Source: a virus (Duplodnaviria > Caudoviricetes). From it: a stretch of 64,000 bases of DNA. Made by a program: the position numbers and the translations under genes. This document shows positions 45,035-52,813 of this stretch, piece after piece (the first letter of the stretch is position 1; every line of letters begins with the position of its first letter). The notes under the pieces are model-generated. The model saw only the letters and a program-made list of their open reading frames with translations, made no database searches and was not told the origin of the DNA. The DNA is taken from positions 32,001 to 96,000 of the IMG/VR virus record IMGVR_UViG_3300035498_000371; one strand, written 5' to 3'.

Positions 45035-46168
45035 ATGATTTTTAATATTAATTCAAATCCTGGATTCGTTCATGAGTTGGAAATAAATGGTCAGAAAGTC
45101 GACGAAGACGATAATAAAAATGACTATACTGCTAATGCAGATGATGACACTGGTGGAGATAATCCACCAGCTGAACCTGAGGATACAACAGAACCAGCAG
45201 ATGACGATAATACGGATGATGCTGGAGATGATATGACTGATTATACTGCTGAAGACTTCGATGATGGAGACGATGAAGGCGGCGACGATAGCACCACAGA
45301 TGAGCCAGCAGATAATGAAGAAGATCAACCTGATAATGCCGGTAATAATGATGAAGGCGGAGAAACTTCAACAGATTATACTACTGATGATACTGACTTA
45401 GACACTCCAGATGAAGATGAAGGCGACGAGCCAGATGATGCTGGAGGAGATGCAGAACCAACAGATGGGGATAGCCCAGATAATACTGAAGATGACGAGG
45501 ATGGGGATGCTCCAGAAGATGATATGACCGATTATACTGCTGAAGACTTCGATGATGGAGACGATGAAGGCGGTGATGAGGATGCTGGAGATGGAGAAGA
45601 TGTCACTACAGATGAACCAGATAATAGTGGGGCTACAGGTGATTCAAATTCAACAGATTATACTGCTGAAGGTGATGACGACGAAGGTGGAGATGAAGGA
45701 GATGCTGGAGACGACACCGGAGATGATGAAGGAGCCGATGATAATGCAGACGATTCTGGCGATGAAGACGCGACAACTGATGGGGAAGAGAATAGCTCAG
45801 ATCCAAAGAGTTTAGCAGATATGGAAAAGAATCTGTTCTCTGATCTTACTCCTCAACAGATGTCTATCAAAAATACTGAGCTTCTTCAGAACTATATAGA
45901 TCTTCATGCTACATTAGAAACTATAACAACGGATCTTGATAAGATAGAAAAAACTTTTGAGAATACAAGAGTTATTGATTTCATTCAAGATAAACTTACA
46001 GAGTTGAAGGATATTATAAACTACACTATAACCACTACATACATTACAAGAACGTATGTAGAGAACCTTTCAAACTATAAACAAGCACTTTTAACTTTAC
46101 AGCAAATCAATTCAATGCTTAAAGGATTAATACAAAAGCCGGCAAAACAAACAAATACCGAACAGTAA
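45035..46168 (+). CDS. Highly acidic repeat protein, candidate scaffold
   Basis: ~250-aa D/E/G/T-rich region with five DYT motifs; helical C-terminal domain; directly upstream of the MCP. Confidence 0.6.
   Translation: MIFNINSNPGFVHELEINGQKVDEDDNKNDYTANADDDTGGDNPPAEPEDTTEPADDDNTDDAGDDMTDYTAEDFDDGDDEGGDDSTTDEPADNEEDQPDNAGNNDEGGETSTDYTTDDTDLDTPDEDEGDEPDDAGGDAEPTDGDSPDNTEDDEDGDAPEDDMTDYTAEDFDDGDDEGGDEDAGDGEDVTTDEPDNSGATGDSNSTDYTAEGDDDEGGDEGDAGDDTGDDEGADDNADDSGDEDATTDGEENSSDPKSLADMEKNLFSDLTPQQMSIKNTELLQNYIDLHATLETITTDLDKIEKTFENTRVIDFIQDKLTELKDIINYTITTTYITRTYVENLSNYKQALLTLQQINSMLKGLIQKPAKQTNTEQ
45227..45580 (+). repeat. Intragenic ~60-nt direct repeat (DDMTDYTAEDFDDGDDEGGD x2)
   Basis: Near-identical gattatactgctgaagacttcgatgatggagacgatgaaggcgg at ~45239 and ~45530. 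Confidence 0.85.
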
Positions 46169-46263: not shown

Positions 46264-48114
46264 ATGCCAGTTGTAGGTGAAAGACGAAATCCTAACATGG
46301 GAAATATGTCTAAAGATCCCATGTATGCATATGCTGCAGCCTTCATGGAAACACAGCAGAATATGCTTCGTGAAAATCGCATCGACTATGGTTTCGAGCC
46401 AGTAAGAGCATTGGCTATTCAGGGAAACCGTGATGCACTCAGAAAATTCTATGTTGAAAATTCGGTGGTAGGCGACCGAAACAGTATGACAACAGAGGAG
46501 TACGACGATCAGATCAAAATGATGGACGAGGCGTTCATCAATGATATGCAGGCCGTACAGGAAAATGGTAGTATTGGTATGGCTCAGTACAACCCGATGG
46601 TTGGTCTGTCTCTGCCTATGCATAAATACCTTATGTTAAACTGTGTATTCGCACAGGCTATTCCTCGTTTCGTTGCTAAGTCTAGTTCTTGGACTGAGAC
46701 AATGGAAACAAGATTCATGGTTACACCGGATGGAAAGAAGATTGATATCGCCAATCAGCAGAATCAGATCTATCCAGCATGGAAGAGCGCTAACAAACCT
46801 ATCGAGGTTGCTATCGCATTGCCAGAGGTTCAGACAGTGGATATTCTTAATGAGTATTTCCACGTAGATCGTAAGAGTCACAATCTTTCTGTTGCTACTC
46901 ATATCTCTGCAGTTGCAATTGAGGATGCTTATAAGAAAGGTGATACTGTTCTTACAATCGCCGATGGCGTTATTACAGAATCAGTTGCTACTGAGGATGG
47001 TACAGGACTTGTATGGAAACCTTGGTTAGCAGAGTTCACACCAGGATATGGTGAGTATAACCGTGTTATTACAAAACCAGTTGATATTGTTGTTACAGGT
47101 GCAGATGGAGAGGAAACAGCGTTCCATGATTCTATCTTTGCTATGCAGCAGGATAATATGTTTGAGATCAACTCAGGCGGTAAGATCAAAGCTGTTAAGA
47201 TGTATGCTCGTTATGACGCATCTTCAAGAATGCTTAAGACTCCGAGAGTAGAGTGGAGCGAGAGAACTACATTCGTTCAGATTCCTGAGAATGATGGTAT
47301 TACTGTACCTATCACTCCTGAGGAAGTAAAAGACATCGGCGCTAACTATGGTATCAATCAGGTTACCAAGTACATGAGCATGATCAAAGACATTCTTGAG
47401 AATGTTAAAGATGATGATATCCACAATGAGCTTGATGAGAGCTTTATGAGATTGGATGACGATCACAGATTGGCTAAGACAATCGATTTCGCTCCTCGTC
47501 AGGGATACTACAGTGATCACCTTGAGTGGTTACAGAGGACATTCATGAATACACTCGATCAGTATATTACTGGTCTGCTTACAGTTCTTCGTGATCCTAA
47601 TATGCAGATCTGCATTGTTGGTCGTCCAGGACTTATCAGACAGATTACACCTACAGAGTACAGCTACGCTACTCCTTCAAGTGTTGGTCCTATCGAGCTT
47701 GACTTTAAGAAGACTGTTGTTACTTCAGATAAGAGAGTATACAACTTCATCTCTTCTGATAAGTTATTCGGAAATGATAATCTCATTGTTCTCTTGATTC
47801 CTAAGAACACTGATCGTATCGTATATCGTTTATATGATTATCAGATGTACATCAGCAATGAGATCAGAGATGCTGAGAATCCGGCGCTTCCTGCATTAAC
47901 TGCATTCCAGCGTTACAAATTCTTCTCATATCAGCCTGTTCAGGGTCGTCTGTTCGTTGCTAATCCTAGCGGTCTTCGTGAGCATCTGCCTAACGTTGAT
48001 CCTATTGGACCTCAGTATACAAACAATGATCTTGGTAGCGTTTACACTCATTATGATGAGGCTACAGGCAAGAATGTTGCAACAGCAAATGAGCTTCCTG
48101 AAGTAGACGGTTAA
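46264..48114 (+). CDS. Major capsid protein
   Basis: 616 aa in the head cluster near the protease and acidic protein; strongly biased codons; own promoter and terminator. Confidence 0.75.
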   Translation: MPVVGERRNPNMGNMSKDPMYAYAAAFMETQQNMLRENRIDYGFEPVRALAIQGNRDALRKFYVENSVVGDRNSMTTEEYDDQIKMMDEAFINDMQAVQENGSIGMAQYNPMVGLSLPMHKYLMLNCVFAQAIPRFVAKSSSWTETMETRFMVTPDGKKIDIANQQNQIYPAWKSANKPIEVAIALPEVQTVDILNEYFHVDRKSHNLSVATHISAVAIEDAYKKGDTVLTIADGVITESVATEDGTGLVWKPWLAEFTPGYGEYNRVITKPVDIVVTGADGEETAFHDSIFAMQQDNMFEINSGGKIKAVKMYARYDASSRMLKTPRVEWSERTTFVQIPENDGITVPITPEEVKDIGANYGINQVTKYMSMIKDILENVKDDDIHNELDESFMRLDDDHRLAKTIDFAPRQGYYSDHLEWLQRTFMNTLDQYITGLLTVLRDPNMQICIVGRPGLIRQITPTEYSYATPSSVGPIELDFKKTVVTSDKRVYNFISSDKLFGNDNLIVLLIPKNTDRIVYRLYDYQMYISNEIRDAENPALPALTAFQRYKFFSYQPVQGRLFVANPSGLREHLPNVDPIGPQYTNNDLGSVYTHYDEATGKNVATANELPEVDG

Positions 48115-48137
48115 TTAATGTAAATGATCAAGATATA

Positions 48138-48163
48138 CAGGGGTAGCAGAAATGCTACCCTTG
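48138..48163 (+). terminator. Terminator after the MCP
   Basis: caggggtagca-gaaa-tgctacccttg. Confidence 0.75.
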
Positions 48164-48226
48164 TAATTTTGTCTTATTCATTCACGTCGGAACAAATAAA
48201 TAAAAATAGATAGAGGAGGTGTTTGT

Positions 48227-48388
48227 ATGGCTACTATAAATCCATATGCTAGACCATACCCTACTAATGATTTGGGATCGGTATATACACATTATAATCC
48301 TAAAACTGGTAAGAATGAACCAACTCCAAATGTATTACCAAACAATAATCCAAAGGAGGATAACAAGGATGGAAAAGACACCAAGTAA
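48227..48388 (+). CDS. 53-aa protein duplicating the MCP C-terminal tail
   Basis: MATINPYARPYPTNDLGSVYTHYNPKTGKNEPTPNVLP...; RBS gaggaggt; AACA-N6-TA at 48191..48202. Confidence 0.8.
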   Translation: MATINPYARPYPTNDLGSVYTHYNPKTGKNEPTPNVLPNNNPKEDNKDGKDTK

Positions 48389-50439: not shown

Positions 50440-51108
50440 ATGAAGAAAGATAATGTAATCCTTGCTAATTTCGATTTCTTGGTGGACTTAGACGTAGCAA
50501 TGTTTAAGTTCATCAAGAATCGTTATAAGAACTCCAAGTATGTAGATCAAAAAATCATTAATATGGAAGATGAGAATCTTATTAAGTATACTATGCTGAA
50601 TAGAAAGCATATAAATCCATTAGAAGTAATTATGCCTGAGGTAGACACCACAGATATGTATTATGAAATAATGAATGATCATTTTGACGAATTATTATCA
50701 TATGCTAAAGCATATGATACATTTGGTCTGCTTATTACGTTTCTCAACAATGCATCTTCGGTAGATATAGTAGTTCGTTGTAATAATGAGAAAGAAGAAA
50801 AGTTTATCAAAAAACTTAATCCAATACTTAATACAACTATAACTCCTAGATCAAATGTTAGGGTTAATGATTATTCTGTTATTTATGAGAAGTATTACGC
50901 TTATTTAATAGAGTATCCTAAACTTATAACTAAGCATATCTACATTGCGGCAGCAAAATTTAATATGGAAGAAGATAAAGATCTTCTTAATGTAGGATTA
51001 TCTACGTTATTTGGAGATATAAACGCAATCCATTTAATGGATTTGTATCAATATGTAAAATTCAGATTTAAGAAAACCGAGGAGGATGACGACGATGATT
51101 CAATCTAA
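50440..51108 (+). CDS. Hypothetical protein (possible degenerate HAD fold)
   Basis: N-terminal ILANFDFLVDLD. Confidence 0.6.
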   Translation: MKKDNVILANFDFLVDLDVAMFKFIKNRYKNSKYVDQKIINMEDENLIKYTMLNRKHINPLEVIMPEVDTTDMYYEIMNDHFDELLSYAKAYDTFGLLITFLNNASSVDIVVRCNNEKEEKFIKKLNPILNTTITPRSNVRVNDYSVIYEKYYAYLIEYPKLITKHIYIAAAKFNMEEDKDLLNVGLSTLFGDINAIHLMDLYQYVKFRFKKTEEDDDDDSI

Positions 51109-52813
51109 TATTGTGTCTGAGGATAAAGTAAGAAGTGTCCAGCGCGATACTCTTAACGTAATATCTAATGCGCTTGTAAAATCATTTGGTCCTAATGGTT
51201 CCACTACAGGAATCATTAAAAATATGGACAAGAACGGAATTAATATTGCTGTAGAGCATACAAAAGATGGTTATACTATTATGAGCAATATTCAGTTCTT
51301 AAATCCTATTGAAAGATCAGTTCAGGATCTTCTTACTGATTTGACTCGCTATGTGGTTAAGGAAGTTGGAGATGGAACTACATCTGCTGTAGTATTATGT
51401 AATGCTGTATTTGAGCAGTTATGCAATAATGCAAGTATTGCAAATTGTCCAGCGGCAGATACAATCTATAAGTTTACTGAAGTTATATCTAAGGTAAAGG
51501 AAGAGATTAATAAGATGGGAAGAGAGTGCACTGTAGATGATATCTATGAGATAGCTCTCATATCTACAAATAACAATGAAGAAATTGCTGGTATTATAAG
51601 AGAAATCTATAAGAAGTACGATATGAATGTCTTCATTGATGTAGGCACCTCAAATCAGGTCTTTAATGTAGTTAAGGAATATGACGGAATGACTCTCGAT
51701 ACAGGATTTGCTAATGTATGCATGGTAAATGATGCTGAAAAGAATACTGCTTCTGTCAGAAATCCAAGAATCTACTGCTTTAATGACCCTATTGATACAC
51801 CAGAGATGCTCACATTACTTGATACAATCTTATACAGCAACATTATGCGCTGCTATGAGAGAGGTTCTGTGTATGAACCTGTACCTACAGTAATCTTCTG
51901 TAAGCAGATATCTCCAGATACAAGTTCTTATTTTGAGTCTGTAGTAAAATTGATGAGTGCTGTTCCTAATGTACCACTGCTTATTGTAAGTGATATTCAT
52001 CAGCACTACATTTATGAAGATATCGCTCAGATGTGTGGGGCAAAATTCATTAAGAAATATCTTAATCCAGATCTTCAGCAGAAAGATATCGATGCAGGAT
52101 TAGCACCAACTACAGAAACAATTCTTGAATTTTGTGGTTCGGCAGAGTTGGTTGTTGCCGATGAATACAAAACTAAGATTATCCGTCCTAAAGCAATGTA
52201 CAATGAGGATGGTACTTATTCAGATGCTTACAATACTCAGCTTAAATATCTTGAAGCTCAGATTAATAAAGCTACAAATGAAGATGCAGGGGTAATGGAA
52301 ATACAAAAAGCAAAGAGAAGGTATAACTCCTTTAAAGGAAATATGGTTGATCTGTTAATTGGTGGTATTGCACTATCAGACAGAAATAACCTTAAAGCAT
52401 CTGTAGATGATGCTGTGCTGAATTGTAGATCTGCGGCTATTAATGGTGTTGGTTATGGGGCTAACTATATGGCATTCTCAGTATTACATAAAATGAAAGA
52501 TGAATCCACTGCTGAAAATGGCAAGAATAATGTCTTCGTCGATATTTTATGTGATGCTTATGATAAGCTTGTTTCTATCTTATACAACAAGACTGGAGAG
52601 GCTGAAAAGAAAGAGCTTATAGACAAGCTTCTTGAAAATAAATGCCCTCTTAATATAAGAACCAATGAGTATGATCAGAAAGTTCTTTCATCTATCAAAA
52701 CAGATACAAGTATTCTTGACACTATTAACAGAATTCTGATGCTCATGTTTACGAGCAATCAGTATCTTGTACAGACACCAATGCACAATATCTATTCTGC
52801 AGATGAACGTTGA
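51086..52813 (+). CDS. groEL: Phage chaperonin (GroEL-like)
   Basis: SFGPNG, TKDGYT, VGDGTTS, DDAV; no GroES gene in the window. Confidence 0.92.
   Translation: MTTMIQSNIVSEDKVRSVQRDTLNVISNALVKSFGPNGSTTGIIKNMDKNGINIAVEHTKDGYTIMSNIQFLNPIERSVQDLLTDLTRYVVKEVGDGTTSAVVLCNAVFEQLCNNASIANCPAADTIYKFTEVISKVKEEINKMGRECTVDDIYEIALISTNNNEEIAGIIREIYKKYDMNVFIDVGTSNQVFNVVKEYDGMTLDTGFANVCMVNDAEKNTASVRNPRIYCFNDPIDTPEMLTLLDTILYSNIMRCYERGSVYEPVPTVIFCKQISPDTSSYFESVVKLMSAVPNVPLLIVSDIHQHYIYEDIAQMCGAKFIKKYLNPDLQQKDIDAGLAPTTETILEFCGSAELVVADEYKTKIIRPKAMYNEDGTYSDAYNTQLKYLEAQINKATNEDAGVMEIQKAKRRYNSFKGNMVDLLIGGIALSDRNNLKASVDDAVLNCRSAAINGVGYGANYMAFSVLHKMKDESTAENGKNNVFVDILCDAYDKLVSILYNKTGEAEKKELIDKLLENKCPLNIRTNEYDQKVLSSIKTDTSILDTINRILMLMFTSNQYLVQTPMHNIYSADER

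Follow-up and report, generated by a model that had tools for sequence, protein, structure and literature searches.

A Predicted Free-Standing Copy of the Major Capsid Protein Arm Is Encoded Together with a Zincin-Like Protein Gene in a Clade of Uncultured Jumbo Phages

Immediately downstream of the major capsid protein (MCP) gene of an uncultured giant phage of gut or rumen type lies a short open reading frame (ORF), referred to here as the mini-gene, whose product resembles the C-terminal end of the capsid protein itself. What could such a small piece of an MCP be doing as a separate gene? The DNA analyzed, called the window throughout, is a stretch of 64,000 nucleotides corresponding to bases 32001-96000 of a 239-kb uncultured virus record that is roughly 76% complete. 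Table 1 lists the features of the locus. In tblastn comparisons, the MCP distantly matched the 'precursor of major head subunit' of PBS1/AR9-like Staphylococcus jumbo phages. The 377-aa protein encoded directly 5′ of the MCP gene (window 45035-46168) is extremely rich in Asp, Glu, Gly and Thr over its first ~250 residues; it had no Pfam or PHROG match and looks like a scaffold or core protein. The same block of head genes includes one for a GroEL-like phage chaperonin (window 51086-52813; PHROG 5725, E 9e-68; Pfam Cpn60_TCP1), which is located three genes 3′ of the gene for the zincin-like protein described below.

Table 1. Features of the capsid gene, mini-gene and zincin-like gene region (window coordinates).
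Feature	Position	Strand	Remarks
Major capsid protein (MCP) gene, 616 aa	46264..48114	+	PHROG 20655 'major head protein', E 1.6e-13
MCP C-terminal arm segment, residues 578-612, template of the mini-protein	47995..48099	+	BLASTP
Terminator-like hairpin of 13 pairs (48136-48165) and T-run, 3′ of the MCP stop codon	48136..48175	+	
AACA-N6-TA, AR9-type late promoter motif	48191..48202	+	Inferred transcription start 48202
Shine-Dalgarno sequence of the mini-gene, GAGGAGG	48213..48219	+	7 nt 5′ of the ATG
Mini-gene, ATG start, 53 aa, paralogue of the MCP C-terminal arm	48227..48388	+	
Shine-Dalgarno sequence of the zincin-like gene, AAGGAGG, within the mini-gene ORF	48353..48359	+	9 nt 5′ of ATG 48369
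Gene for the zincin-like HExxH protein, 380 aa	48369..49511	+	20-nt overlap with the mini-gene ORF

The first-pass annotation of this DNA described the 53-aa product as a free-standing copy of the MCP C-terminal tail, and a direct comparison of the two proteins agreed with it. Residues 4-38 of the mini-protein align with MCP residues 578-612, with 20 identities in 35 positions (BLASTP, single comparison, E 7e-11), and the alignment includes the identical 10-residue run NDLGSVYTHY. That this run is encoded by different codons in the two genes was also borne out: the same codon is used at only 7 of the 19 identical residues other than Met and Trp, and the synonymous sites of the two copies are saturated (pS 0.84). 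Elsewhere in the 239-kb record, the core motif recurs once only, in the MCP arm. This core comprises 28 residues, Y-P-x-N-D-L-G-S-V-Y-T-H-Y-D followed by a turn of three or four residues and then by K-N-V-P-T-x-N, and the window mini-protein fits it. Alignment A1 combines eight mini-proteins with 10 MCP arms, and none of these 18 sequences departs from D15 or N30. Two residues in the same alignment are specific to the mini-proteins, the Pro that follows the first Tyr and the Pro of the 'N-V-P-T' segment. Since the mini-proteins hold residues that the arms lack, they are not just refreshed copies. The window mini-protein is more arm-like than the others, is devoid of their N-terminal segment and resembles the arms of the L005 and L014 types, a likeness that suggests another exchange between the two genes.

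The pattern of conservation in arms and mini-proteins alternates as expected of a hairpin. A low-confidence AF2 model likewise places two short strands, MCP residues 595-598 and 603-606, on both sides of the conserved turn as a β-hairpin; the MCP model is poor (11-sequence alignment, pLDDT 55) and does not fix the position or the shape of the arm. Two other characteristics of the MCP end were observed. An L-R-E triplet (MCP residues 569-571, window 47968-47976), of the L-x-E type cut by T4-type head proteases, is found just before the arm and is kept as L-x-E in most relatives, while L008 and L009 have L-R-S or I-R-S. It is pure speculation that cleavage at this point, if any, would free an arm peptide of about the size of the mini-protein. 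In L007, the MCP runs past the arm motif through about nine tandem four-residue Gly/Thr repeats before its stop codon (L007:5915-6037).

Other identities for the mini-protein were considered. It belongs to no Pfam or PHROG family and had no usable match in the ESM Atlas, and no relation in sequence or fold was found to known families of decoration proteins (Soc, gpD, Hoc, Psu, pb10 and others), the mini-protein being too short and disordered for a fold search. Many mini-proteins begin with M-P-(Y/I)-I-(I/V)-x-R, which resembles the MCP start M-P-x-V-G-E-R. An origin as an internally deleted copy of the whole MCP that conserves its N-terminus was not supported, because an HMM of the MCP N-terminus scored the mini-protein N-termini no better than shuffled sequences. 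An RNA element in place of a gene was also discarded, as comparison with Rfam produced only sub-threshold noise.

Relatives of the locus were collected with the MCP (16 metagenomic loci, 39-86% identity) and with the protein encoded downstream (61 loci). Nine distinct lineages carry the mini-gene, namely the window, L001-type, L004, L005-type, L014, L007, L008, L009 and L030. Disruption or loss of the gene in close relatives, which would have spoken against the first-pass annotation, was not the pattern observed: the ORF is open in 9 of the 9 carrying lineages and is preceded in all of them by a good Shine-Dalgarno sequence at 6-9 nt from a start codon. A random frame of 53 codons is open with a probability of 0.0135 at 34% GC, which for nine independent cases gives about 1.5e-17. 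Selection on the peptide, which had been proposed from the codon differences, is visible between orthologues as a dN/dS of 0.07-0.63 over the 28-codon core, with dS near or beyond 1 or saturated. The flanks outside the core evolve much faster and almost neutrally (pN/pS about 0.7). The ORF at 48227..48388 is also predicted by other gene callers.

A search of 1.84 billion representative proteins with profile A1 returned 69 matches. About 60 of them, counted as clusters at 50% identity, are separate proteins of 44-99 aa that share the core. The others include C-terminal MCP fragments of 53 and 79 aa and longer MCP fragments of 133 and 380 aa, and two matches, P0162 and P0190, were set aside as unrelated repeat proteins. 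P0168 (171 aa, with the motif near its end) and P0164 (99 aa) have the arm motif behind much longer N-terminal parts, in the manner of a portable tag. The family is therefore sizeable, about 60 clusters, and is unnamed in the databases searched. These comparisons show that the mini-gene ORF is a genuine gene with its core under purifying selection.

The signals surrounding the mini-gene are those of a late transcription unit. The non-virion RNA polymerase of phage AR9 recognizes 3′-UUGU-N6-AU-5′ in the template strand, equivalent to AACA-N6-TA in the coding strand (PMC9209446). This non-template motif, ending at the start site as in AR9-type late units, is present upstream of the window mini-gene. 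It is found 35-64 nt 5′ of the mini-gene start in seven of the nine lineages, and the remaining two have GACA-N6-TA. In the relatives, a terminator-like hairpin always precedes the promoter motif of the mini-gene. AACA-N6-TA occurs 45 times in the window, counting both strands, and 15 of these occurrences are within the 96-nt zones 5′ of 51 ORFs against 1.7 expected. This is an enrichment of about 9-fold upstream of the window ORFs, and the MCP gene and the mini-gene are among those that have the motif. The first-pass annotation had assigned to the mini-gene its own late promoter and ribosome binding site (RBS) after the MCP terminator; the hairpin, the AACA-N6-TA motif and GAGGAGG are all present in that order, and reading the motif as a promoter is a reasonable inference. 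The mini-gene can be considered a late gene, with a strong RBS and a late promoter motif that a terminator separates from the MCP gene. In L008 and L009, a second hairpin with a U-run is located between the late promoter motif and the mini-gene RBS (approximately L008:3105-3145 and L009:6473-6513). This hairpin is absent from the window and could be an attenuator in the 5′ leader.

A point that was absent from the first-pass annotation is that the mini-gene is physically coupled to the gene that follows it, which codes for the zincin-like protein, and not to the MCP gene. The start of the zincin-like gene was placed at ATG 48369, instead of at longer or shorter alternatives, because the first 12 residues read from this codon are conserved in all relatives (alignment A2). 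Its RBS and start codon are thus inside the 3′ end of the mini-gene, and the same arrangement is found in relatives. A free-standing ORF of ~45-100 aa abuts or overlaps the zincin-like gene in the window and in eight further distinct lineages; in every relative the two either overlap or have only the stop codon or a few more nucleotides between them. Many mini-proteins have a conserved G-K-(D/S)-S-K ending, which results simply from reading the ATG-GAA-AAG start of the zincin-like gene in the other frame. The frame of the mini-gene relative to that of the zincin-like gene is +1 in six lineages, and the two are in-frame with an intervening stop codon in L007, L008 and L009. A fusion of both proteins by frameshift or readthrough was therefore rejected: the frame relation varies, and no fused form was found among the 69 A1 matches of any length.

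Insertions between the genes point in the same direction. Segments of 0.8 kb in L008 and L009, 1.2 kb in L007, 2.4 kb in L014 and 8.4 kb in L030 separate the MCP gene from the mini-gene/zincin-like gene pair, and all of them fall between the MCP gene and the pair, never within the pair. Since the pair stays together despite the insertion of up to 8.4 kb, the weight shifts to an accessory role in assembly or maturation exerted with the zincin-like protein. The spacer between the MCP gene and the pair is a hot spot for insertions, and the unrelated small genes within it add up to anything between 0 and about 8 kb, depending on the relative (window 48115-48226; L008:2495-3167; L009:5858-6535; L007:6041-6993; L014:5870-8259; 8.4 kb in L030/L082). 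These genes include ORFs of 142 aa in L009 and of 246, 160 and 184 aa in L014, and there was no obvious homing endonuclease among the spacer ORFs of the relatives. At about 55 loci, the MCP gene is followed by the zincin-like gene at a distance of 80-150 nt with nothing between them, and in Staphylococcus phage SA1 a protein with a HEIGH sequence is encoded directly after the MCP. The MCP gene followed by the zincin-like gene is, judging from this distribution, the ancestral order.

The nature of the partner was examined by several approaches. The HEVGH sequence is found at residues 113-117, within a predicted helix (residues 104-120; AF2 pLDDT 80), and 587 homologues were identified. The window protein scored 12.5 bits against Peptidase_M48 (PF01435), below the Pfam gathering threshold of 20.3 bits, while P0057, a 64%-identical homologue, passed the threshold for PF18894 PhageMetallopep (25.2 bits vs 23.7). 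In the ESM Atlas, a viral M48 cluster was among the neighbours of the protein, at 0.94. The best Foldseek matches were BepA and MATCAP, both weak (E 0.17-0.6), and the structural likeness between Ste24p and residues 21-214 of the model was also weak (VIA; Z 5.9, rmsd 4.4, 136 residues aligned). The fold-search lists were dominated by the C-terminal three-helix bundle of the model. The downstream protein is best described as probably zincin-like and M48-like, and not as a proven member of M48. A tblastn search of 50,697 cultured-phage records with this protein gave no match at E 0.01. Of 120 close homologues, 119 have an intact HExxH sequence, and a degenerate one was found in L010 and at about 9 of 60 distant loci; therefore, the family must also have a role that is independent of catalysis. 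One or both His residues of HExxH are lost, the rest of the protein being conserved, in L010, L055, L059, L060, L063, L064, L067, L068 and L071, and these homologues may be pseudo-enzyme forms.

The history of the arm and of its copy was reconstructed from a quick version of an MCP tree that included the MCP body only. The arm motif was restricted to one MCP clade, on a long branch with an SH-aLRT of 100; distant MCPs stop about 45 residues earlier or bear other short tails. The arm motif was thereby shown to mark a single clade of AR9/PBS1-like uncultured jumbo phages. Eight of the 10 distinct rows of this clade have the mini-gene, and L010 and L011 have the arm only. L010 clusters with the mini-gene-bearing L007 (support 98), and since it is nested among lineages that carry the mini-gene, at least one loss of the mini-gene, or else a second gain, must have occurred. 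The comparisons show that, within the arm clade, the arm-coding segment was apparently copied once into the interval that separates the MCP gene from the gene following it, and that the copy was then kept open and under purifying selection, evolving in step with the arm. Together with the absence of the mini-gene, L010 has a zincin-like protein without HExxH that is down to 30% identity, compared with the 65% identity retained by its MCP. This joint loss, a single case, points towards a functional tie between the mini-protein and the zincin-like protein.

Arm and mini-protein have also remained alike within each genome. Their identity is 0.547 in the same genome and 0.465 across genomes, and permutation gave a p of 0.003 for nine genomes and of 0.012 for eight lineages, with L008 and L009 counted once. 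Rare residues common to the arm and the mini-protein of one genome only were found in L004, L007, L008/9 and L030. L004 has a 53-nt run that is identical in both genes, which indicates a recent gene conversion. In L030, the arm and the mini-gene are 8.4 kb apart and share four unique residues, three of them encoded by different codons; this sharing fits either a conversion long ago with subsequent drift or selection exerted by a partner that both bind.

What, then, might be the function of the mini-protein? We propose tentatively, at a little short of an even chance, that it mimics the MCP arm in soluble form, being produced late along with the zincin-like protein, and that it has a role in head assembly or maturation with that protein. 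The mini-protein, probably a β-hairpin with disordered ends, would occupy the binding site of the arm. Both proteins would come from one late message, with translational coupling probably setting a fixed ratio between them, and because of this common message the likeliest partner of the mini-protein is the zincin-like protein or its site in the capsid lattice. The mini-protein could then act as a stand-in, a guide or a competitor for the MCP arms during head assembly or maturation; for example, it might hold the zincin-like protein in a state like that of the arm-bound form or pace its access to the arms. Several facts weigh against this proposal. The linkage could be a by-product of operon layout, since with a shared promoter insertions would be tolerated only upstream of the pair. 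Gene conversion alone, as in L004, can yield concerted evolution without a shared partner. The nearly neutral evolution of the residues outside the 28-residue core and the poor MCP model, which leaves the arm unplaced, also count against it. The zincin-like gene is present without the mini-gene in L011 and in all distant relatives, so the mini-protein is not an obligatory cofactor, and the degenerate HExxH of the distant loci indicates that catalysis itself is not always needed.

A more far-reaching version of the same idea, which we regard as unlikely, is that the arm hairpin serves as a portable tag that docks at a site on the capsid lattice or on the zincin-like protein, and that the free copy controls head maturation. 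The mini-protein could, for example, fill the peptide-binding cleft of the zincin-like protein until proheads present an array of MCP arms. If so, one short motif would both build the shell and time the enzyme that acts on it, and P0168 and P0164 would be cargo delivered by the same tag.

The proposed role linked to the zincin-like protein ranks ahead of the three alternatives that were weighed, the first of which is a purely structural role in the virion. In this case, a free hairpin in the shell would fill arm-binding sites out of reach of the covalently attached arms, for example around pentons or the portal, or would serve as a plug or cement at capsomer centres. The identity of its core to that of the MCP arm and their covariation are expected of such a component, and so are the late promoter motif and an RBS as strong as that of the MCP gene; the docking-tag-like arrangement of P0168 and P0164 was counted in its favour too. 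In addition, the 239-kb record yielded no distinct MCP paralogue that could serve the vertices, although at ~76% completeness a vertex protein could be missed. One MCP therefore probably builds both hexamers and pentamers, as in phiKZ, and this was also counted for a virion component. However, capsids are presumably still built in L010 and L011, which have the arm without the mini-gene. The linkage of the mini-gene is with the zincin-like gene and not with the MCP gene, and conservation is poor on both sides of the core. We consider a purely structural role rather unlikely, if the strongest of the three alternatives.

Another possibility is that the ORF is a translated remnant of a duplication that now serves as a leader: ribosomes passing through it would drive translation of the zincin-like gene, and gene conversion would refresh its resemblance to the arm. 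The location of the RBS and start codon of the zincin-like gene within the ORF, the conversion documented in L004, the near-neutral evolution outside the core and the especially arm-like window mini-protein, without the N-terminal segment of the others, would all be explained in this way. Nonetheless, a mere leader would not hold a 28-residue core at a dN/dS of 0.1-0.6 amid synonymous saturation, nor would it keep Pro residues that the arms do not have. The rare residues shared in L030, three of four with different codons, do not fit recent conversion, and the core is kept in all of the about 60 clusters at 50% identity. A leader or remnant is accordingly judged improbable. Equally improbable is a decoy, a free arm copy that soaks up a host protease, adaptor or immune sensor acting on the exposed arm of the unassembled MCP: the promoter motifs suggest late co-expression with the MCP, and short MCP segments trigger abortive infection by the host, as the Gol region of T4 gp23 does with the Lit protease, but a trigger copy would be expected to activate the host factor and not to block it, the source phage is uncultured, with neither a known host nor a known defence system, and the tight coupling to the zincin-like gene would be left unexplained.

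The soluble arm mimic acting with the zincin-like protein remains our preferred reading, and the locus is of interest beyond it. Partial copies of capsid proteins kept as separate, selected genes are outside the textbook picture of phage head assembly, and a literature search found no published description of a capsid arm that is copied as a separate gene and maintained by selection. Should the free arm bind at the site of the MCP arm, it would provide a handle on the function of the C-terminal arms of jumbo-phage MCPs, and another on the conserved, uncharacterized zincin-like protein encoded beside the MCP gene. A 28-residue motif that docks by itself, if true, would lend itself to display or to the tagging of cargo for these capsids.

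Known systems offer partial parallels. T4 gp24 is a vertex paralogue of the MCP gp23; its gene adjoins the MCP gene, is expressed late and acts in head assembly, and the protein has a full-length HK97 fold and forms the pentons. Like gp24, the mini-protein is the product of a duplicate derived from an MCP gene; unlike gp24, it consists of the terminal arm only and cannot form a shell subunit. [quoted passage not shown] The phiKZ gp120 arm is, like that of the window phage, a short C-terminal extension of an HK97-type jumbo-phage MCP outside the core fold, in its case forming a six-arm bundle in the hexamer (PMC11297242). It has 20 residues and is helical, whereas the arm of the window phage has about 40 residues of a different sequence and is modelled as a probable hairpin; no free-standing copy of the gp120 arm is described in the phiKZ study (PMC11297242). 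Two other phiKZ proteins, gp93 and gp162, are small, largely unstructured, late minor capsid proteins that bind the MCP by strand addition, and one of them reaches towards the hexamer centres (PMC11297242). No relation in sequence to the MCP is reported for gp93 or gp162, while the mini-protein is a paralogue of the MCP arm. Finally, an uncharacterized zincin-like metallopeptidase is conserved in the 'group 1' (phiKZ/AR9-type) jumbo phages, and a role in maturation cleavage has been proposed for it (Iyer et al. 2021, PMC7824862). The partner of the mini-protein in the window is likewise a conserved HExxH protein of a phiKZ/AR9-type jumbo phage, and the group 1 zincin may represent the same family.
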